A stretch of DNA of 63,267 nucleotides, counting the filler, from Rhabdomonas costata (lineage: Eukaryota): assembly GCA_019059605.1 (NCBI GenBank). It is 15 parts of 15 records of this genome, joined end to end, with 100 filler letters (N's around TTAATTAATTAA, not from the genome) between each part and the next. Parts side by side here need not be neighbours in the genome. Positions count along the whole stretch, not along the records: positions 29,704 to 33,816 come from JAHMHO010000356.1; 14 more parts are not named here. One strand, 5' to 3'. Both the position numbers and the translations under genes were made by a program. The notes beneath the pieces are model-generated. The model had not been told where the DNA came from. It did not search any database and saw only the letters and a program-made list of their open reading frames with translations. Positions within the stretch are counted from its first letter, which is position 1, and every line of letters starts with the position of its first letter. This document shows, piece after piece, positions 4,135-59,324 of this stretch.

Positions 4135-4234
4135 NNNNNNNNNNNNNNNNNNNNNNNNNNNNNNNNNNNNNNNNNNNNTTAATTAATTAANNNNNNNNNN
4201 NNNNNNNNNNNNNNNNNNNNNNNNNNNNNNNNNN
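4135..4234. other. Artificial contig spacer (N-run TTAATTAATTAA N-run); 13 more at about 8466, 12687, 16905, 21175, 25390, 29603, 33817, 38027, 42235, 46437, 50629, 54829, 59074
   Basis: The identical 12-mer gives stops in all six frames, is flanked by N runs and recurs about every 4.2 kb. Confidence 0.98.
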
Positions 4235-8085: not shown

Positions 8086-8581
8086 CAACACACACACGTT
8101 TGCAAACAATTGTTCTGGGCACCGCGTGGCGGGAAAACATGTGAGACAGAAGCAGCTCAAAAAGAAGCAGGAAGGGAGATGCAGTTGATGTGTGTGCGTT
8201 TCGGAAGAAACCACTACCAAGACAAAACGTACAAGAACCAGCTACAGGAAGGGTGTAACCCGCTAATTCCCGATATTAGCGTTGCGGGAGCGGATAGAGA
8301 CCGTTCTCGACGGGTTTCTTGCTGTAATTTAATGGGCGTGCTCGCCGAGGGCCCTGTAACCCTTTAGCTCAGCACTGGCGACAACAAAAGATAAAAGAGC
8401 GACCGGAGGAAGACGCCTCCCCCATCATGGGTTCGCCATTTAAATAAAAGGGTTAAAAAAAACCCNNNNNNNNNNNNNNNNNNNNNNNNNNNNNNNNNNN
8501 NNNNNNNNNTTAATTAATTAANNNNNNNNNNNNNNNNNNNNNNNNNNNNNNNNNNNNNNNNNNNNGTTTTTGTGGGTACAG

Positions 8582-17004: not shown

Positions 17005-17950
17005 TGTGGTTTGGAGCAGGCCTGGCGACTGACTTGGTTGAAGGCGTTGCGAACATCCACCTTGCACAGCATAGTGGTCCGGAGGTCGTTGACCCATTCG
17101 CGCACCGTGTAGATCGCTGTCTGGGCTCCGTTAGACCCCGGCGTGAATCCCAACTGATTCTCGGGGAGAAATTCTGCAATTGCACCCTCGGCTTGATGAT
17201 GCACAAAGTGTGACACTAGCGAGTGCAGCGTCTCGAACGCAACAGCGTGCCGGATGCCATTATCCTACTTCCGCAGTGGTGCCAGACGGCCAGCTCCAAA
17301 CCATTGCGCGAGCTCTGCTGGCCAGTGACCGCTAGCGGCCGTTGCGATAAACTGAGCGACCAGGCTCACAAGCTCGTCCTGGTTGTTGCCCAGGGTGCTA
17401 TTGACTAGCTGGTGGAGGTGTTCTGCCCTGATCCTGATGCGGTGCCCGGGACAATTCGGTGTATCAGCTTTTCTGCGTCGTCCCTCGTGCCTTCGCAGCT
17501 GACGGGTGTAGGTAACTCAATTTGCTCGTTCCTTTTGGGGTAGAGGGCCTGGATCTTGTCCAGATTCCGGCGGACGTCGACCTTCCGTCGGGAGCAAAGC
17601 ACTCTGCATCCCCTACCCGGACGGCCTTGGTCCACCCATTGCGCTGCCTTCCTGGAAGCGGCGTCTTCCTGGGTAACTTCGGCCCGGGGCCGGTTGCCTT
17701 TCTTCCTCCATACCATCGGAGAAACCACTTGCGCAGGAGGCGGTCCAGGGCGTTTGCCTGGCATGCCCTACACGGACTGGGGCGGCGAGAAGCCGCTTGG
17801 AGTCGAGCAGGGACCAGTCTTTGGCGACCGGCTACTGATCGGGAGAGTTTCGCTGATTTGGGACCCTTGATGTCAACGGGCCTGCCGGGGGTGAGCATGG
17901 AGTGGATCATGGTGTCGGAAGTGGGTGCATTGGCCATGTCGACGGTTTTG
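17005..17950 (-). mobile_element. Decayed CRE/SLACS-clade non-LTR retrotransposon, pre-RT region and RT N-terminal part
   Basis: KAAQWVDQGRPGRGCRVL...IQALYPKR...GTASGSG, then FLPENQLGFTPGSNGAQTAIYTVREW...LCKVDVRNAFNQVSRQ (RT D-x-x-NAFN motif). Interrupted by stops and frameshifts and truncated at the contig end. Confidence 0.8.
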
Positions 17951-19010
17951 GGTTACGCGGCCAAAGGTTGGGGAAAGCTTTGAAAGAGAGGGGACCGAGT
18001 GTTGTAAGAGGCCGAAATCGGCTACATCTCCGACGGCCCCCCACGTGGAGGGGGGAGGGTTCACCGAAAAATTGATCACACTTAGTAATCACTTCACTCC
18101 AAACTCCCGCGCCAACTGAAACAATCTGAAAGTTTACAAAAATTAATTTTCAAAGCCAACTCCGTCCCCGACTTATTGTGCATTTACATTCGAATACCAG
18201 CGGCCAAATCCTGCTTTGCTGCCTTAAGCTTTCCAGCTTTTCCTGCCCAACGCAATTCCTTTTGTTTTGTTGATGTAGGACGCAGGACTTCCCNNNNNNN
18301 NNNNNNNNNNNNNNNNNNNNNNNNNNNNNNNNNNNNNNNNNNNNNNNNNNNNNNNNNNNNNNNNNNNNNNNNNNNNNNNNNNNNNNNNNNNNNNNNNNNN
18401 NNNNNNNNNNNNNNNNNNNNNNNNNNNNNNNNNNNNNNNNNNNNNNNNNNNNNNNNNNNNNNNNNNNNNNNNNNNNNNNNNNNNNNNNNNNNNNNNNNNN
18501 NNNNNNNNNNNNNNNNNNNNNNNNNNNNNNNNNNNNNNNNNNNNNNNNNNNNNNNNNNNNNNNNNNNNNNNNNNNNNNNNNNNNNNNNNNNNNNNNNNNN
18601 NNNNNNNNNNNNNNNNNNNNNNNNNNNNNNNNNNNNNNNNNNNNNNNNNNNNNNNNNNNNNNNNNNNNNNNNNNNNNNNNNNNNNNNNNNNNNNNNNNNN
18701 NNNNNNNNNNNNNNNNNNNNNNNNNNNNNNNNNNNNNNNNNNNNNNNNNNNNNNNNNNNNNNNNNNNNNNNNNNNNNNNNNNNNNNNNNNNNNNNNNNNN
18801 NNNNNNNNNNNNNNNNNNNNNNNNNNNNNNNNNNNNNNNNNNNNNNNNNNNNNNNNNNNNNNNNNNNNNNNNNNNNNNNNNNNNNNNNNNNNNNNNNNNN
18901 NNNNNNNNNNNNNNNNNNNNNNNNNNNNNNNNNNNNNNNNNNNNNNNNNNNNNNNNNNNNNNNNNNNNNNNNNNNNNNNNNNNNNNNNNNNNNNNNNNNN
19001 NNNNNNNNNN

Positions 19011-19088
19011 ACCAATACCAGGCCGCCCGTGCTTCACGGGCTTGTACGTGATGCTGAACTCGCCCAGATAGTGGCCAACCATCTCACC
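19011..19088 (-). CDS. RPS15: 40S ribosomal protein S15 (uS19), C-terminal exon running into an N gap
   Basis: TAG|GEMVGHYLGEFSITYKPVKHGRPGIG is the highly conserved eukaryotic RPS15 C-terminal signature. Confidence 0.9.
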
Positions 19089-21977
19089 CTATGGTTGGAA
19101 GGAGGTTGGAAGGACAGTGCCCTTGACAAAGTTACGAACCCAAAAAATATTAGGCGTTCATTGCTCAGGCGATTTGGATTCGCTGTCATAGTTGATAATT
19201 CCGGCACTCCGCTACGTTTCCACAGTTGGTTTCCTCTGACGTGCGGACGCCACTGGCGCGCACTCTGTGTGTCAGGAGAGGCACCTGCTTCTGTGCTATC
19301 GGCGGTGTCGGGAAAGGGCAGGAGGTTGACACTAATTGAAGTCAGCTAAATTGACAATAATTTGAATTAAACTTTACTGGATTTTTGGGTTGTGAAATTG
19401 CTGCAGGTGGTGGGTATTGCACTCCCATTTTGATACAGAGTAGATGGTAGAAAGAATTGAGGTGGGGTTTCACGGAAATTGTCCAGAAGAGGGAGAGTAG
19501 CCACTTTTGTTTTCGGGAAGCACTGTACTGGCGGAGACACCGGCGGACTCCAATGTCTGTAGAGTTTGCGACAGAAGCTGACTGTTAGAGCCTCCAACGG
19601 GGAAGGTTAACCAGTGACGCATTTTGTTAGAGTGGTGGGAAAGCTTGGTCAGATGCCAATCAAGCTTTACCTGCGAGTGATAAGGGCAGCAATCCCAGTG
19701 GTGCTTGGCTACACGTTTTAACGCCGTAGCGGGCACAGGTGGACTGGAAAAAGCGGATCGTGAGAGTTTGGAACGGCCGGATATACGAGATTCCCGCACT
19801 TTCGGCCGCAGATTCTTCCCGCAACAGGTGCCCAACGACAGGTATAATGGAGGCTGGCTTGGCGGACTTGAAAGAGTCGAGAGATGTTATGCTCGAGCAT
19901 TAGCAGCGCGTTCTTCTCGACTGCCCGCCCGACCTCCTTGCTGACCGTGTGTGGGATGAGGCCTCCGAGATGGACGTTTCTTCTGGTTCTTGCTCTTCGT
20001 CACTGTCCGCTCCCCGGGTGCGCCGCGGCGCGTGCTTGACATGCCCCCTCGAAGAACAGAACAGCCGTTGCATTGACTAAAAGACAAGCCCGTGTCGAGT
20101 TCTTGGAAACGTCCCAACGGGAAGGGAAGGACAACGGAACGAGGAGAAGCACACCCAGTGCGTTGTCGACCAAGTGCGAGTCGAGGGGCCACCATCGGAA
20201 AGTTCCAGTGATGCCATTCAGATTGGTAACACGAGACGAAAGACAGATCAAACTAAGGGTGGTCAAAGCGGGGGGGACACCGCTTCACCCCGAGCGGGTG
20301 CGGGTAGAGAGCGCGGCAGAGACAGCCATTCGCCGTGGAAACCACGGTTTATAATGGTAAACGAAACGGCGCGCCCACGATCAGCACGGGCATAAATAAA
20401 CGCACGCGGAATTCAGCGCGACAAATAGCAAGGGTTTTGGGGAAGGCGCTTCTGACGAGGTTGAAAAGCTCCCTCACAGCTCTTCGCTGGGACAACGCCC
20501 GCACTCCCACGGCCCAACTTTCCTCACGTTAACCAGACCTCTTCGTGTGAAAGGGTGTCCATCCACCACACTCCCACGTAAAAGCGCGCCATCATTAGAT
20601 TTTTTGAACAAGGCCAACACTCCAGAAACTGCCCTAAAAAAACCAGCCACAAAAAGGAATACATTGCAACTGACATCTTCTTCGATACAATCCCGCCCAA
20701 ATGTTACAAAAGCGCTAGCCTTTCTGCCGATCAAAACTTTACCAAAGCACTTAAATAGCAAACACTGAACAACAAACGATGAGGAGAAGGGACAAGGCGC
20801 CCAACAAGACAAAAACCCCGTCAACCCGATTTGCGCTTTCTCAACCCCGCTCCCCATTCCCTATAAACACTCCCGCAGAAGAGGGAGTGCTTGGCGGGGG
20901 CAAAATAGAAAGGGGGGGAGGCCGCAGGTCTCGCGCCAAGGCGCGGGCGGCGAGAAAAGGCCAAAGCCCACCACAGCAACGCACGGGGAGAACACACACA
21001 GAAGCCGGAAAGACGAAGCCCAGAAAAACAGGCACGCCAGGAGGGTGCAACAGCTTTTACAAGGGGGCGCCCGCCCGAAAACAATGCGCAAGGCGGCCGG
21101 GGGCAAAAACACAAACAGTGCAGAATATGCCGTTGGGGGCGTGTGGCACTGTTTCTGTTTTTGCCCCCCACACANNNNNNNNNNNNNNNNNNNNNNNNNN
21201 NNNNNNNNNNNNNNNNNNTTAATTAATTAANNNNNNNNNNNNNNNNNNNNNNNNNNNNNNNNNNNNNNNNNNNNGGGGGTGGGTGGATACAGGCGGTCTG
21301 AAGAGGAGCCCAAAGCCACGACCACCCGCAAGAGGGAGCGGATAGACCGCGTCACAAGGCTCATTGAATTTTATTCCTGGCATTTTGTTCTTAATGGGCA
21401 AGGGAAAGACAACGCAAACACACGAGAATGAAAATGCACGCATCGGGACAGGAGCAAGATCGCAGCGTATGTTTGCCCAACGTTGGTCAAACAATGCCCA
21501 ATCAAAAATGGCAAGATTAAGGATGGCGTTGGACATTGGGCCTTGGGCCACAGCCGTTGGGATGCGAGACGACACGCGTATGGAGCAGCAAATGTAGGGG
21601 GTCGATTTTGGTTCGAGCACGCAAGGATGTCAGAGCCCAACATGTTTTACCCCACATAATCACGGCACTATTAAATAATATGCCGGTTGTGGATGTGTGG
21701 GTATATTTATCAAAAAGACGTGCGATGAACGTCATTTCAGCACTGCAAAATGCAGGGCAGACAAATTCTTCAGTCGCCTCCATACGAATTAAGAGAATTA
21801 AGAGGAAGGTGCAATCACGTCAGGACATCACAAGGAGCAAGTATCCTGAGAAAGGATCCCTGATGTCCCCGGTAAGTGAGGGCACCAGCTTCTTTCTGCA
21901 CTAATTCGGACAGCAAGCAGCAAGCGAGTGTACGAAGTCAACAACCGTGACCACAAACAAAGTCAAGGGGACAAACG

Positions 21978-28773: not shown

Positions 28774-29703
28774 CTTCAGCACACTCGCAGCATACAGTGC
28801 CAAAGAGTGGTTAGCTACTTTAGAGGCAAACTAAAATGCAAAGAAACGGGAAAACAGTTCAAAAGAAGCTGCAAGCAAGGAAAAAAGGAAGACAAAAGCG
28901 ACACAAAAGGAAAGGAAGAACAAAATCAGCGCTGATACAAATGGGACGGAGCCACTGCGGCAACGTGCGGTATTTTTGTTGTTCGCGGGGCTTAAGTTGA
29001 TGACCGAAAGTCGTGCCCATTTACAGGGTGTTCCATTTGAAAAGATATATATGAATTTTGAATATAAAGACCATGAAACCATGAAGGCTCTGGGTATTTT
29101 ATGTGGCGTGTGTACACATCCTGCCATTTCGTATAACAGCAATTTTGGTGCTTTCCGCGTCGCTTACCTCTGGCGTTGCTTCGAGAACCTCATTTTGTTA
29201 TTTTGACCGAATGGTCTGGCCCCTACGGATTCACGCAGTCCAGCTGTTTTGGCAGTTGGGTTCTGCTGACAATGTACCGTCGCAACAGTGCAAGTGGCCA
29301 AGACGGCAGTAGGGGGTTCAAAACGTAGGGAGTACAGAGACAAAGGCCTCAAACCCGAAGCCAAGACCCAACCCCAAGCCCACGAAACCCATGCAAAAAC
29401 CCACCAGCACCACCTAAGCACACGTAGACACAGAAGAAACAGCAACGGTAACGAGGGACCCTGACCCCGAACTAAAGCCCCAGAACCCTACGACGACAGG
29501 TACCGCTACCTGAAGCCAGCAACCCTACGACAGAACCCACCCACCCTAAAGACCGAACCCCACAACCAAGGTACACACATATCCAAGAGAAGCAACCACC
29601 ACANNNNNNNNNNNNNNNNNNNNNNNNNNNNNNNNNNNNNNNNNNNNTTAATTAATTAANNNNNNNNNNNNNNNNNNNNNNNNNNNNNNNNNNNNNNNNN
29701 NNN

Positions 29704-32700
29704 GTGGGGATTTGGGCGTGTATGGGTGCGGCAGGGCCAGAGCGATGGGACGACGCGATCTTTGGGGTGGGTGCCGACTGTCCCCCACACGGGAGATTGC
29801 AGCACGGGGTTGTCCGCACTGCCAGCCCAGGCGCTTGTGTTTGCCCAGACGGTGCCCTTGAGTGGGGCTCAGGCCTCGCTTGGGGGTCAGCTTCAGGCCG
29901 GCGTGGTGGCTGCGTTTGCGGAGCAGAACGGCATGGGCGGCATCAACGGACATGCTCTGCACCTCATCACCCTGGATGACATGGGGAACCGCACGGCTGC
30001 CCTTCAGAGCTCGACGGCCCTGCTTAGTCGGGGAGTACTGGGTTTTGTGGGTAGCCATGGGCTGGGCTTCGCGGATGACGAGCTGGCGGTGCTTGTGGGG
30101 AGCAGCTCCTCGGTTGTGGTGGGGCCGTACCCCGCGCTTGCGGTGAAGGCCATGGCGCCCCCCATGGTCCCAGCCAACGTGTTTACGGTCCGCGCCAGCT
30201 ATTTGGATGAGATCAATGCCTTGGTGAACTACGCGACGTACACGCTGGACCTGATCCGTTTCTCGGTGTTCTACCAGGGAGATAGTTTTGGGGTTCCGGC
30301 TGTGGGCGCCCTGAAGACGGCCCTTGCTGCGGTGAACCTGCGGCTGTACAGTAATGGGAGCTGTGGGGCGGACAGCACGAACGTGACGGCGGGCACGGTT
30401 GGGTTGATGAGCCGTGCGCTGCCGTTTGTTCCGGAGGTGATTTTGGTGTGGGCCAGTGCGCCGGCCGCGGCCGCCTTCATTTCGCTTGCGAAGACTCTTC
30501 TGCCCTCCTCCGTGGTGTATCTTGTGGGTTCCGTGGTGGGCGATGGCTTTGGGGCGTACCTGTCCAGCGGAAACAGCCGCAACATTTACATGGCCCAAGT
30601 ACTTCCCCTTTCGACGGACGTGAGCGTTCCAGTGGTGGGGAGCTATCAGGCGGCGATGGCAGCGGTGAATGCGACGTATACCCCCTCTGCGATCTCATTG
30701 GAAGGGTATGTGGGGGGCCGCCTTCTGGTGAGTGCCTTGAAGAGCATTCCGAGCTCCAGCCTGGGCCAGAGCGGTGCGGTGGCCAGCGCCTTCGTTTCGC
30801 TTGGAGTGATTCCGATCGGGTCGACGCTGCGCGCGGGGCCGTACTCCAGGGCATGCAACGTGGGACTGCGGCAGGTATGGATCACGAACTTCACTTCCTC
30901 GATGGGGCTGCAGATGGTTCCTGTGAACGCGATGTTTTCGTTCTCCAACCGGCCATGCTTGAGTGACAGCGCATCGTTTCAAACGAAGTACATTGTGTGG
31001 GGCCAGTCGGGGTCGTTCACGGCTGGTGCTGGAGGTCCGAACGCCAACCAAACCAACGGAGGTATCATCGCAGCCTTTGCGGAGGTCAATCGTCATGGCG
31101 GCATTTCTGGGTACCGGCTCAGGCTGATTTCGCTGGATGACTATTTCCTTGCGGCGACTGCAGGTTCGAATACGAGGGCGTTGATCAACGCGGGTGTGTA
31201 TGGGCTGATTGGGTTTGGGGGCACGGATCCCGTGATGGCGGGGATGTCTGTAGCGATTGCCAACCGGATGCCCTATGTGGGGCCGCATACGGGAACCATT
31301 GCCCTTCGAAATGTCAGCAAATACGTCATCAACGTTCGTGCCAGCAGTGCGGACGAGATCACGGCGCTGGTGAACTTTGCCACGGTGCAAGGCATGACGA
31401 AGTTTTCGGTGTTGTACCAGAATGACACGTTTGGGGCCCAAGGGGTGGCCGCCCTTCAGGCAGCTCTTGCGGCGGCGAATCTGAAGGTGCTCAGCTCGGG
31501 TGCATTTCCGACGCAGAACATAGGGCTTGTCAATGTGGCGCTAACCCAACTGCTGAACAGTGCGCTTCCGTTTGTGCCGGAGGCGATTCTTGTGTGGGCC
31601 GCCTCCCCGGCTGGCTCCTCGAATTTCATCACAGCCGCGATGAATGTGCTGCCCCCGACCACGATCTTCCTGTGCTCGTCAGTGGTGGGGGAGTCCTTTC
31701 CCACTGCGTTTCCAACCACGGGGGCCCGGGTATACGTTACGCAGATCTTGCCGCTGTTCTCGAACACGAACTACAGTGTGGTGCAGAATTACATGACGGC
31801 GATGCGGGCGGTGAACCCCAGTGCGGTGAATTCGTTTTTCAGCTTTGAGGCGTACATCAATGCGAAAGTGGTGATAGCGACGATGCAGCGAATGTGGGCG
31901 GAGGACCTGCCCTCCAACGCTGCGTTTGTGAATGCGTTGTACCAGCAGTCCACGTTCACCTTCGATGAGCTTGTTGTGGGTCCCTTCAACTCAGCTCTGA
32001 CCACGACGAGCAATGGGGTAACGACCACCACGGTGTGCAACCAGGGCATGAAGCAGGTGTGGATCTCGAACTGCCCTGGAGGGAAGTTTGTTGTGCTACC
32101 CAGCCAGACGTTCTACTTCGCCAGCGGGTCGTGCTTCAGCGACGCCCGGGCCATTCAGACGTGGAACCTGGTGTACGGGCAGTCCGCGCCGTTCACAGGG
32201 CTGTATGCTGCGGAGGGCACAGCGCTTCGTGCTGGGATACTGTCAGCCTTCGATGAGTTCAACCAGGGGGGCAAGATTTCTGGGTACACGCTGAGATTGT
32301 GGAGCCTGGACGACGGCTACCTTCCAGACAATGCCACAGCGAATGCGCGGTCTTTGATTTCGGGTGGGGTTCAAGGGCTGATGGGGTTTTACGGCTCCAA
32401 GGCCTCTACATTGGTCTCCTCGATGGCGGCCTCCCGAGGGCTTGGTCTTTTCGGGCCATACACGGGGACGATCGGGGTTCGGGTGAATGCATCCATTGGA
32501 ACGATCAACCTTCGGGCGGGGTATGCTGACGAAATCAATGCGATGGTGCAGTTCCTTGTGGGGACGATGGTACTGCGGCGTATCTCGATCTTCTACCAAA
32601 ATGATATCTTTGGGCAGCAATGCGTGAGCGACCTGACCGCGGCGCTTAGTGCGGTTGGGCTCACCATTCTGAGCTCTGGGTCGTACCCCACGGGGAGCAC

Positions 32701-33690
32701 AGATGCGAGTTCAGGCTTTGCGCAGCTTCAGAGCGGTGCGCTGCCGAGCGTGCCGCAAGCAGTGGTTGTGTGGGCACTGAATCAGGCTGCAGCGAATTTC
32801 ATTGCTTTGGGAAAGACGTATTTGCCAAGCTCCGTTGTGTATGTGTGCCCTTCGGTTGTAGGCTCTGCCTTTACTTCGAGCTTTGGCCCTGGGGAAAGCC
32901 AAGTCTTCATGACTCAAGTTCTGCCTCCGCTTACGGTGACCTCGCATGCACTGGTGCAGCAGTACACTTCGGTGATGACCGGGTTCGACCCGAGCATGGT
33001 GAACAGCATGGTTGCATTTGAGGGCTACGTGACGGGAAAGCTGCTGGGGACGGCGCTGCAGCGAGTGGCCTTGAGCAGCATGCTGGACAAGATGAGTGCG
33101 ATCAATGCGGTGTACAGCAACAGCCTTTTCGTGCTGAACTCCCTATCGTTGGGGCCTTACCTTTCCGATAGCTGCAACCAGGGCATTCACCAGGTTTGGC
33201 TCACTCAGCTTACAAACAACACCATGAAGTACCTTCCCGACTCGGACTTTGTGTTCTCCAGTTCGTGCCGGTCGGATGCGAGTTTGAACCTGAGGCATCC
33301 GCTGATGTTTGGCCACCTGCTGCCTGTAGAACTGAGCCTAGCACTAGACCACCAGCAAGGCATTTTTGCGGCATCGTCGGAGATGAACATCAACAACGAG
33401 CTTGGTCAGCGGGACCTGCAAGTGTTCCCGTTTTGGTACTCTTTGAGCGAGGAGCCGAGCGCGCTTTCGAGTCGGCTGGCGACGTTCATCCAAGACAACG
33501 CCATCGTGGGGCTTGTTGCCAGCGAGCGTGCGGCCCTTTTTGCACCGGGCATCTTGGGCCCCGCGACGAGCGGGAGGGTTGTTGTGGTTTCCCCTCGGGG
33601 CGCTCCTCCGTTGTCGGGTGCTGTGGCCACGAATCCCTCTCGAATCTTCATTGGGGGTTCTTCCCTGGATGAGGGCTATGCAATGATTCG
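29704..33690 (+). CDS. Large exon of an extracellular receptor with tandem periplasmic-binding-protein type 1 (LivJ-like/Venus flytrap) domains; units start at about 29835, 30990, 32165 and 33300
   Basis: An open frame of over 1300 codons repeats GQS...G..AAF.E.N..GGI.G..L.L.SLDD, NVRAS..DEI and FYQND.FG about every 385-390 aa. It ends at the donor CG|GTATGG followed by T-rich intron-like sequence. The 5' end is truncated. Confidence 0.9.
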
Positions 33691-35035
33691 GTATGGAGAG
33701 GGCTTTCTGCTTTCTGCTTTCACTTTTATTTTTATCTTTTTCTTCCTTTTTCACCGATTAGTTTCGCAGTTTGAATTCCTTCAGTATTTTCCGTAAATCC
33801 TCGAAAACCCAAAAACNNNNNNNNNNNNNNNNNNNNNNNNNNNNNNNNNNNNNNNNNNNNTTAATTAATTAANNNNNNNNNNNNNNNNNNNNNNNNNNNN
33901 NNNNNNNNNNNNNNNNTGTGTTTGTGTGTGTTTGGGTTTTGGTTTGGCGCAGGACTTGCCACTTCATAGAGCATGTGAGAAACCCCTTCGCTGTTCGTTG
34001 AGCGCGTGATGTGTTGACCTGGAGAGAGCTCAAGAAGAACCGCACCTTCCGCTTTTTTCTTTGACATTTTGCTTCTTTTCCACTTGCTTTTTGCTTCCTG
34101 TTTTAAAATAGGCCTGGAGTCTTGGGAGGTCGACGTCGGTGTCCGTGTCGACTCTCCCGGCTATCCTGACGACCGCGCTGAGAACGCAGAATTTGAAAGT
34201 GAAGCAGCAAAAACGAGGCTGTGGGCTCACCCCCCCCCCTCGGCTCCCCCTGCAGCTCGGCAGGCAGTGTGGTCCTGCTTCAGCACTTGGGGTAGTTGGG
34301 GGCTTCAAGCCGGGTTTAATTATCACTGACCCCACCAACCCCTTCTTCCAGTGAACCGACCACACAGTTGACGCGTCTATTGGCCACACTTTCCTTTTAG
34401 ACTGTACATAGTTGCCTCCACCTGCTGTCTGCGTTCTGCCCAGGCAGGGGCGTTTTAGTGCAGCTCACGGCTCACGTGAATTTTGCGTGGGATCGTCAGT
34501 GAATATCATTAAAAAAAGGGCCATGGCGCCCACCCACCACAACGCACTGGACTGAAAAAACAGGAGGTATGGTAAAAACACGCCTAAAAATCCTAACAAT
34601 AAAACAATGCAAACAAGTTCTTTTCTACTGAATTGCCGCCTTTTGGGGGCATTGACTTGAATGATCCATCAGACCCCTAAAATAAAAAATGCCCCATTTT
34701 AATTTAATGGGAACGTGCGTCTTGTGCACTGCATTTAATTCTGGTAGATCATAGTCCTCAAAAATTAGTTACGCAATAAACAAAAACCTATTCAGTTGAT
34801 GCAATGGGATGGCAATTTTTAATTCATCATTCTGACAAGTGTAGCCTTTTGATGATATTTATGTTCTTTTTTTTGAGTTTTTGAAAGGAACGAAGTGAAC
34901 TTTATCGCATGACTAACTCAAGTCGATACAACCTGAAATAGTGTTGGGGGAAATTCCTCCTCATTCAGATCGATACAGGGAAATACGTAATTAAGTCGCT
35001 TCCATTTGTTCGAACTCTCTGTTCAACTTCTCCAA

Positions 35036-59058: not shown

Positions 59059-59324
59059 GCATGCAAACACCCCNNNNNNNNNNNNNNNNNNNNNNNNNNN
59101 NNNNNNNNNNNNNNNNNTTAATTAATTAANNNNNNNNNNNNNNNNNNNNNNNNNNNNNNNNNNNNNNNNNNNNTTGTTTGTGGCACTTCCTACAACATGT
59201 TTGTGCGATTTTTTTTCTGGTGGCAGTAATAGCAATACCCTAGCAGTTCTCTCCTCCCCAGTTCCCCACCGTCCTTCCTACGTGTTCATCCAAGCGTGTT
59301 AATCTAATGCTGAGCTGTCCGACA

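Follow-up and report, generated by a model that had tools for sequence, protein, structure and literature searches.

Receptor-type adenylate cyclases play a central part in the biology of trypanosomes, and we know of no established ligand for them. In trypanosomes, these enzymes have two Venus-flytrap (VFT) domains, one transmembrane helix, and a cyclase homology domain, an architecture that the available part of one source calls 'a hallmark of trypanosomatids' (PMC6027212). The same partial text draws a comparison to the natriuretic-peptide receptor guanylyl cyclases (PMC6027212). Here we analyze a locus from the assembly of Rhabdomonas costata, in a stretch of 63,267 bases that we will term the window. 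It is likely, in our judgment, that this locus is a long exon of 3,986 nt or more that encodes most of the ectodomain of a euglenozoan receptor-type class III adenylate cyclase similar to ESAG4/GRESAG4. As in ESAG4/GRESAG4, the protein would have extracellular VFTs, one transmembrane helix, and a class III cyclase (the cyclase is seen in P0005, a full-length paralogue). There are three differences. First, the trypanosomatid proteins have two VFTs, whereas P0005 has four and the window gene has at least four and probably five; the contig itself holds three complete VFTs and part of another. Second, it is the distal, Peripla_BP_6-like module that is repeated in R. costata. Third, the host is a free-living osmotroph.

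On the + strand, the open stretch of frame +1 spans 29705 to 33796 (the stop is at 33794-33796) and encodes 1,363 amino acids (P0001). We take 29705-33690, or 1,329 uninterrupted codons, to be the exon. Aligning parts of P0001 to each other gave three complete repeats of about 385 amino acids each (R1, R2, and R3; see Table 1), with pairwise identities of 36.0, 38.0, and 41.0%, followed by the start of a fourth and divergent repeat (R4). The open frame and the repeat alignment thus agree with an initial annotation of this DNA, which had described a chain of three complete repeats and a divergent fourth in one open exon, and the pattern clearly exceeds what chance would give. Most of the motifs that it listed for each repeat are also present: LDD occurs three times (at residues 90, 477, and 868), as do YQ.D.FG and CN.G, and C.SD occurs four times (three times at the ends of repeats, with one chance match at 973). 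The exception is N[VL]RA[SG], which is found in two of the three repeats; R1 has TVRAS instead. N-x-S/T sequons, which had also been put forward as a feature of the repeats, are at the level expected by chance (12 were observed versus 11.4 expected; a count of 12 is reached in 485 of 1000 shuffles). Given the shuffling result, we set aside enrichment of sequons as an argument for a surface location.

R1, R2, and R3 are LIVBP-like type I periplasmic binding protein (PBP) or VFT domains. Across the whole open reading frame (ORF), Pfam gave matches to Peripla_BP_6 in three stretches (E = 1.3e-77) and to ANF_receptor (E = 1e-19), and P0001 also matched Peripla_BP_A-cyclase (PF25493) at 37.1 bits (the cut-off is 27.2). 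When each repeat was scanned alone, all three were above the Peripla_BP_6 cut-off of 31.7 bits, and R2 and R3 also passed the cut-off for ANF_receptor. A profile built from the three repeats matched the solved structures of 4kv7 (Leu/Ile/Val-binding-type, E = 2e-41) and of LivJ from E. coli (1z15, E = 2.8e-7). An AlphaFold2 model of R3, built on a 50-row alignment, had a pLDDT of 94.4 and a pTM of 0.93, and its top match in Foldseek was again 4kv7 (TM-scores of 0.88 and 0.90, root-mean-square deviation of 2.0 Å, 26% identity, E = 3.6e-28). At least 500 PDB entries matched this model at E ≤ 0.001, and all among the matches listed were type I PBPs. R3 thus has the fold of two alpha/beta lobes that superposes on solved proteins of the LIVBP type. 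These results bear out the proposal that the repeats are LivJ/LIVBP-like VFTs. (The ESM Atlas yielded just family-level clusters of Peripla_BP_6 or ANF_receptor proteins, both archaeal and bacterial.)

To what extent each repeat retains the features of the family can be seen from 44 positions that are conserved in at least 85% of 47 single-domain relatives (one of these is the start methionine, which is dispensable in an internal repeat). R3 retains the most of these positions and R1 the fewest; the losses in R1, several of which fall in one loop, include Y58G, T106P, G107A, and R112A (in R3 numbering). The conserved positions are at most an indirect hint that R1-R3 may bind small ligands in the cleft between the lobes, and the differing losses in R1 versus R2 and R3 could mean that they bind different ligands. 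A model of R2 and R3 together (pLDDT of 89.5 and pTM of 0.87) hints that neighboring modules may be held in a fixed arrangement, but it was built on a 19-row alignment in which the register of the repeat proteins may be wrong. After each VFT comes a beta-strand piece that carries a pair of cysteines; in the two-repeat model, its strands are at residues 340-382.

Two relatives indicate what the rest of the protein might look like. The full-length R. costata paralogue (P0005 or RCo024790, 1,927 amino acids) has a signal-like hydrophobic start, four VFTs, a transmembrane segment near residue 1550, and a Guanylate_cyc domain at residues 1587-1776 (79.1 bits). The best matches of its cyclase in the PDB are GRESAG 4.3 and GRESAG 4.1 from T. 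brucei (E = 1.1e-29 and E = 1.3e-27, respectively), which fits the suggestion that the output is 'possibly a cyclase'. The second relative, P0002, is from a contig in ENA and is 38% identical to P0001. It comprises the tail of a VFT, three more VFTs, a transmembrane helix, and ~45 residues from the start of a cyclase. A single genomic open frame encodes all of these, so long exons seem to be typical for this gene family. (The contig of P0002 is 4,943 bp; its frame encodes 1,409 amino acids, and the end of it, ..RYQ then VCVGRICF.., resembles intron read-through.) Our word-based search, which scored 8,000 candidates, identified P0002, P0003 (EukProt RCo038118), and P0004 (another ENA contig) as relatives, at 35-38% identity. 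None of the 2,928 candidates of 2,387-5,000 amino acids that were scored in this way was a longer relative, which is weak evidence. P0001, P0002, P0003, P0004, and P0005 all pass the cut-off for PF25493, and none of these five has a match to 7tm_3 in Pfam.

R4 also resembles these proteins. By BLASTP, it is similar to the fourth, membrane-proximal domain of P0002 (residues 912-1044, E = 1e-9) and of P0005 (residues 1161-1286, E = 5e-4), which in both proteins is the domain directly before the transmembrane helix. Both alignments stop at ..DEGYAMIR. R4 is incomplete, and we favor the view that it is the first lobe of a divergent membrane-proximal VFT that is ended by the exon boundary. At the other end of the contig, the initial annotation had noticed the tail of a probable earlier repeat (R0, residues 1-35). 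R0 has a profile score of −1.6, while shuffled sequences reach 4.2. Its best pairwise score, to the tail of the first VFT of P0003, is marginal (z = 3.8, which 1 of 300 shuffles reach, from 16 comparisons). However, the fraction of G or C at third codon positions (GC3) is 0.714, equal to that of the ORF (0.72), so R0 is probably coding. We retain it, on composition alone, as a weakly supported candidate for the hairpin (..RVW.. then Cys32) at the C-terminal end of another VFT upstream.

With an exhaustive profile search, we obtained 9,124 proteins at E ≤ 1e-3, including 607 at E ≤ 1e-30, and we considered the best 150. Among the 152 proteins that we collected, 16 match both a VFT and the cyclase segment of P0005. 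Names were checked for 30 proteins, and among those named, three from Acrasis kona (KAL0486290.1, KAL0491910.1, and KAL0489977.1), one from Naegleria gruberi (XP_002673284.1), and one cluster member from N. fowleri (XP_044564450.1) each have at least three VFTs, a transmembrane helix, and a cyclase, which is the same arrangement. Tandem VFTs with a Cys pair were also found in Paulinella. Because they are found in Acrasis, Naegleria, and Paulinella, VFT chains of this type are not unique to euglenids. (Another relative is a fragment from Euglena gracilis with a single VFT.)

To place the repeats, we built trees from VFTs spanning 280 or more of the profile's 379 positions (218 rows; partial domains such as R4 are excluded). 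In the FastTree phylogeny, the window repeats lie in a euglenid clade of 12 rows (support of 99), and this is nested in a receptor clade of 130 rows (support of 99) into which the majority of the listed multi-domain proteins fall (it holds 85 of the tree's 148 proteins, and 12 multi-domain proteins lie outside). The named members of the receptor clade are all eukaryotic. Two-VFT cyclases with the trypanosomatid-type domain set also lie in this clade. The clade is set apart by its Cys pair. The first Cys (the CNQG column) is present in 127 of 130 domains within the clade. Of the 88 domains elsewhere, 0 have it, and Asp is their commonest residue in that column. The second Cys is present in 101 of 130 and 0 of 88, respectively. 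Bacterial relatives have GDNQG and end before the second Cys. The Cys pair that closes each VFT (CNQG ... C) is thus a simple sequence marker for the receptor VFT lineage.

For a second tree, made with IQ-TREE (LG+C20+F+G4), we picked 36 of these 218 rows, which represent 20 proteins, and 4 bacterial outgroup domains, for 40 rows. All 19 of the euglenid-type VFTs form one clade (99/99), which implies that the chain was duplicated within the euglenid lineage, as the proposal of tandem amplification had it. The distal VFT of the two-VFT cyclases (96/96), the Acrasis and Naegleria domains, Paulinella, and the bacterial outgroup all fall outside this clade. The first, second, and third VFTs of P0002, P0003, and P0005 group by position (support of 98-100). 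R1 and R2 group with the second-position VFTs (88/90), while the placement of R3 is without support; a single clade of R1-R3 was not rejected by the approximately unbiased (AU) test (P = 0.175).

These trees do not support another part of the initial annotation, that euglenids acquired a bacterial solute-binding gene, as the repeats sit in the Cys-pair receptor clade. Because that clade includes the cyclases of Acrasis and Naegleria as well as the two-VFT cyclases, any bacterial origin must predate the euglenids. The Cys pair, which is specific to eukaryotes, and the comparable multi-VFT cyclases of Acrasis and Naegleria point to an old origin of the receptor VFTs rather than a recent acquisition from bacteria. 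The heterolobosean VFTs are of the same Cys-pair type as the euglenid repeats, yet they lie outside of the euglenid clade, so the euglenid and heterolobosean chains were at least partly built independently.

A class III cyclase is not the only output that has been linked to this kind of ectodomain, and the 3' part of the window gene lies beyond the contig. The gene might encode a genuine multi-VFT ectodomain that is coupled to a class C seven-transmembrane domain or to a kinase, or it might encode a secreted chain without any output. In particular, the Cys-pair clade feeds a 7tm_3 domain in Paulinella P0008, many of the listed proteins have VFTs followed by several transmembrane segments, and two proteins from outside of the clade (P0009 and P0014) combine Metallophos with seven or six VFTs and have no transmembrane helix. 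Nevertheless, we think that a different output is unlikely. The window VFTs belong to a euglenid clade of nine proteins, and the two of these that extend far enough, P0005 (full-length) and P0002 (to the start of the cyclase), both have a transmembrane helix and a cyclase. (The other seven end before any output domain.) Also, R4 aligns specifically to the membrane-proximal domain of the cyclase type.

The receptor-type cyclase remains our preferred explanation, and it requires that the coding sequence continue on another contig. At the end of R4, the DNA reads CG/GTATGG, and from there to the end of the contig the GC content is 0.357, as compared to 0.591 in the ORF. We propose that 33691 is probably an intron donor in phase 2 (CGN encodes Arg regardless of which base comes next). 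Alternatively, there could be no intron, in which case the frame would continue to its stop and the product would be a cyclase-less decoy or binding protein, anchored by FLLSAFTFIFIFFFLF. There are 34 further open codons, and a hydropathy scan flags a transmembrane-like segment at residue 1331. This seems very unlikely because of the low GC content, because the stretch starts with GT and resembles a pyrimidine tract, and because read-through would cut off the fourth VFT midway through its first lobe, exactly where the alignments to its homologues end. We favor treating the hydrophobic in-frame segment as intron read-through and have not taken it as coding.

The contig most likely represents a nuclear gene of R. 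costata or of a very close relative. A transcript-derived protein of R. costata (P0032, EukProt EP00906, RCo025835) matches 176 of the 180 residues at 154-333 of P0001, which supports the view that the gene is eukaryotic. The four differences are conservative (V/I, G/A, M/V, and A/T) and fit an allele or a recent paralogue. According to the available text of the genome paper, R. costata has a relatively intron-rich genome with a GC content of 51.63%, as compared to 58.25% for the transcriptome (PMC8219788); the ORF, at 0.59, is near the latter. Given the near-identity to RCo025835, the GC content of the ORF, and the AT-rich 3' end that starts with GT, contamination by bacteria is unlikely. Indeed, a bacterial contaminant that encodes a multi-domain solute-binding protein is the least probable of the explanations that we considered, and we give it almost no weight: although the top matches in Pfam and among solved structures are bacterial solute-binding families, one R. 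costata DNA sample still contained bacterial DNA (PMC8219788, in the text available), and the GC content of this contig (0.586) exceeds that of the other pieces of the window (0.50-0.57), a higher GC is expected of a contig that is nearly all coding, the nearest relatives are proteins from euglenid transcriptomes, the 3' end consists of AT-rich non-coding sequence, and the bacterial loci that we found are just 25-31% identical and lack the Cys pair (four of the five are plain single VFT domains, and the fifth matched in fragments only).

Several observations weigh against the identification of the locus as a receptor-type cyclase, or against parts of it. First, the transmembrane helix and the cyclase domain are not on this contig, and no relative of the gene is present elsewhere in the window; the output domain is assigned by analogy to paralogues that are just 34-38% identical. 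Second, the sole transcript-derived match is a fragment of 180 amino acids, and its source could be an allele or recent paralogue and not this locus. Third, the putative donor at 33691 rests on sequence features. Fourth, R4 by itself has no match in Pfam, and the two trees place the membrane-proximal domain differently: it is a long branch inside the euglenid clade in IQ-TREE, but it groups with other membrane-proximal domains in FastTree. Fifth, R0 is not statistically separable from chance, so the count of five VFTs is not secure. Finally, the sequons lend no support to an extracellular location.

It is useful to compare the receptor-type cyclase that we propose to other systems with VFTs. 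P0001 has the PBP domain of the adenylate cyclase type (PF25493), its VFTs cluster with those of cyclase-bearing proteins, and the Cys pair is common to the two-VFT cyclases P0063, P0067, and P0098 (P0130 is without the second Cys). The animal natriuretic-peptide receptor cyclases likewise have a VFT ectodomain, a single transmembrane helix, and a class III cyclase; they differ in having one VFT and an intracellular kinase-homology domain. Bacterial LIVBP/LivJ-like solute-binding proteins such as 4kv7 have the same fold as R3 and share its NQG..QV motif; they act with ATP-binding cassette (ABC) permeases. Unlike R1-R3, they are single-domain proteins, soluble or lipid-anchored, and lack the Cys pair and the C-terminal hairpin extension. 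The window gene differs from them further in its tandem chain, its match to a euglenid transcript, and its intron-like 3' end. Tandem VFTs ahead of a transmembrane signaling enzyme are also seen in BvgS/EvgS and CdgH, at least in the partial descriptions available. Those proteins have two domains, of another PBP type, and unlike the window gene they are bacterial and have a kinase or a diguanylate cyclase as their output. In the rhizarian Paulinella, two proteins from P. chromatophora (P0008) and P. micropora (P0010) have three tandem Cys-pair VFTs before multiple transmembrane segments. Pfam confirmed three VFTs and 7tm_3 (95 bits) in P0008. These look like multi-flytrap class C receptors, so tandem Cys-pair VFTs as in the window gene occur with another output and in another supergroup.

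The initial annotation put the locus forward as a candidate for an undescribed receptor. We would instead regard it as the known receptor-type adenylate cyclase in expanded form, and proteins with the same architecture are already in public sequence sets. The heterolobosean records are titled just 'adenylate cyclase', 'hypothetical protein', 'predicted protein', or 'uncharacterized protein'. Our literature search turned up no account of multi-VFT cyclases from either euglenids or heteroloboseans, but supplementary tables may list such proteins. The words 'cyclase', 'periplasmic', and 'receptor' each occur 0 times in the available text of the R. costata paper (PMC8219788), another paper has 0 occurrences of the terms that we sought (PMC7052976), and a third has nothing on receptor-type cyclases (PMC13024336). 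In the portion of the E. gracilis genome paper that was available, the partners of cyclases are BLUF, NIT, P-loop NTPase, HAMP, and Cache1, with no binding-protein domain.

How might such a receptor work? By analogy to its paralogues, we infer that the window gene ends in a transmembrane helix and a cyclase, and its ligands and signaling are proposed on the same basis. The ectodomain would consist of the R0 end-piece, the three distal-type modules R1-R3 with their Cys-pair hairpins, and the first lobe of R4. If RCo024790 is a guide, then the rest of R4, one transmembrane helix, and the cyclase homology domain would be found on another contig, beyond the putative intron that starts at 33691. 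Each Cys pair would form an extracellular disulfide. Small dissolved ligands would close at least one of the VFTs, which would shift the geometry or the dimerization of the ectodomain, so that two cytosolic cyclase domains would meet and cyclic AMP (cAMP) would rise. Pairing of the cyclase domains that is driven by ligands has already been proposed for the trypanosome enzymes, in the available part of that source (PMC6027212). Sensing of this sort would suit a cell that lives on dissolved organic matter.

That a free-living euglenid has the same receptor, with the distal flytrap multiplied, places the origin of this family no later than the ancestor that euglenids share with kinetoplastids, and probably in the ancestor of Discoba. 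Also, the distal flytrap of this receptor, from a free-living euglenid, is much closer to the well-characterized bacterial Leu/Ile/Val-type binding proteins, and would therefore provide an easier route to what such receptors sense. The Cys-pair hairpin marks a lineage of receptor VFTs that also supplies the proteins in Paulinella that resemble G-protein-coupled receptors of class C. A bolder idea, which we regard as doubtful but not far-fetched, is that euglenids and, independently, heteroloboseans have reshaped the cyclase with two flytraps into a combinatorial chemosensor: a semi-rigid rod in which four to five or more VFTs with different pockets would merge several dissolved nutrients into one cAMP signal. 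If so, this would be a sensor for osmotrophic feeding that has no described counterpart, and receptor cyclases would be an ancestral invention of Discoba and not a hallmark of trypanosomatids.

Table 1. Features of the locus and the linkers of the window.
Feature	Position	Strand	Details
R0, 35 in-frame codons upstream of R1	29705..29809	+	GC3 0.714; weakly supported
R1, complete VFT / type I PBP repeat	29810..30970	+	residues 36-422; Peripla_BP_6 63.6 bits; Cys pair C384/C418; 35/44 conserved positions
R2, complete VFT repeat	30971..32146	+	residues 423-814; Peripla_BP_6 102.1 bits, ANF_receptor 45 bits; Cys pair C778/C810; 38/44 conserved positions
R3, complete VFT repeat	32147..33280	+	residues 815-1192; Peripla_BP_6 123.9 bits; Cys pair C1157/C1188; 39/44 conserved positions
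R4, probable first ~137 residues of a membrane-proximal-type VFT	33281..33690	+	residues 1193-1329; BLASTP to P0002 and P0005; cut by exon end
Probable intron start	33691..33816	+	GT at 33691-33692, T-rich tract to contig end; GC 0.357
Artificial linker	29604..29703	.	joins two unrelated contigs; marks true 5' contig end
Artificial linker	33817..33916	.	leads into next, unrelated contig
Linkers	14 sites: 4135-4234, 8466-8565, ... 59074-59173	.	N44 + TTAATTAATTAA + N44

The layout of the window affects how its contents can be read. It consists of 15 pieces of 4,092-4,231 bp, which are joined by 14 identical and artificial linkers at a spacing of about 4.2 kb. The locus is exactly one whole piece (29704-33816, 4,113 bp), and the pieces on either side are unrelated contigs, so no inference from 'neighbors' across a linker is valid. 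What had been described as the truncated 5' end of the gene is really the end of the contig. Similarly, the contrast between this long exon and 'neighboring exons' of 50-500 nt is void, because those exons are on other, unrelated contigs. A tblastn search of the window with P0005, P0002, and P0006 gave matches in this contig only, the 8 longest ORFs of the other contigs had 0 Pfam families, and Rfam had 0 matches in the whole window.

A few other observations may be of use. Two proteins from Logan contigs, P0009 (3,020 amino acids) and P0014 (2,821 amino acids), have an N-terminal calcineurin-like phosphoesterase (Metallophos) domain that is followed by seven and six Peripla_BP_6 domains, respectively, and no transmembrane helix; their VFTs fall outside of the Cys-pair receptor clade. 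To our knowledge, this architecture has not been described in the literature. Within the window, the second-longest ORF is a frame of 683 amino acids on another contig (52478-54526, − strand), which has no match in Pfam at E ≤ 0.001. Finally, the piece at 17005-21174 contains a gap of 717 N's (18294-19010), which makes it the sole piece that is a scaffold and not a contig.

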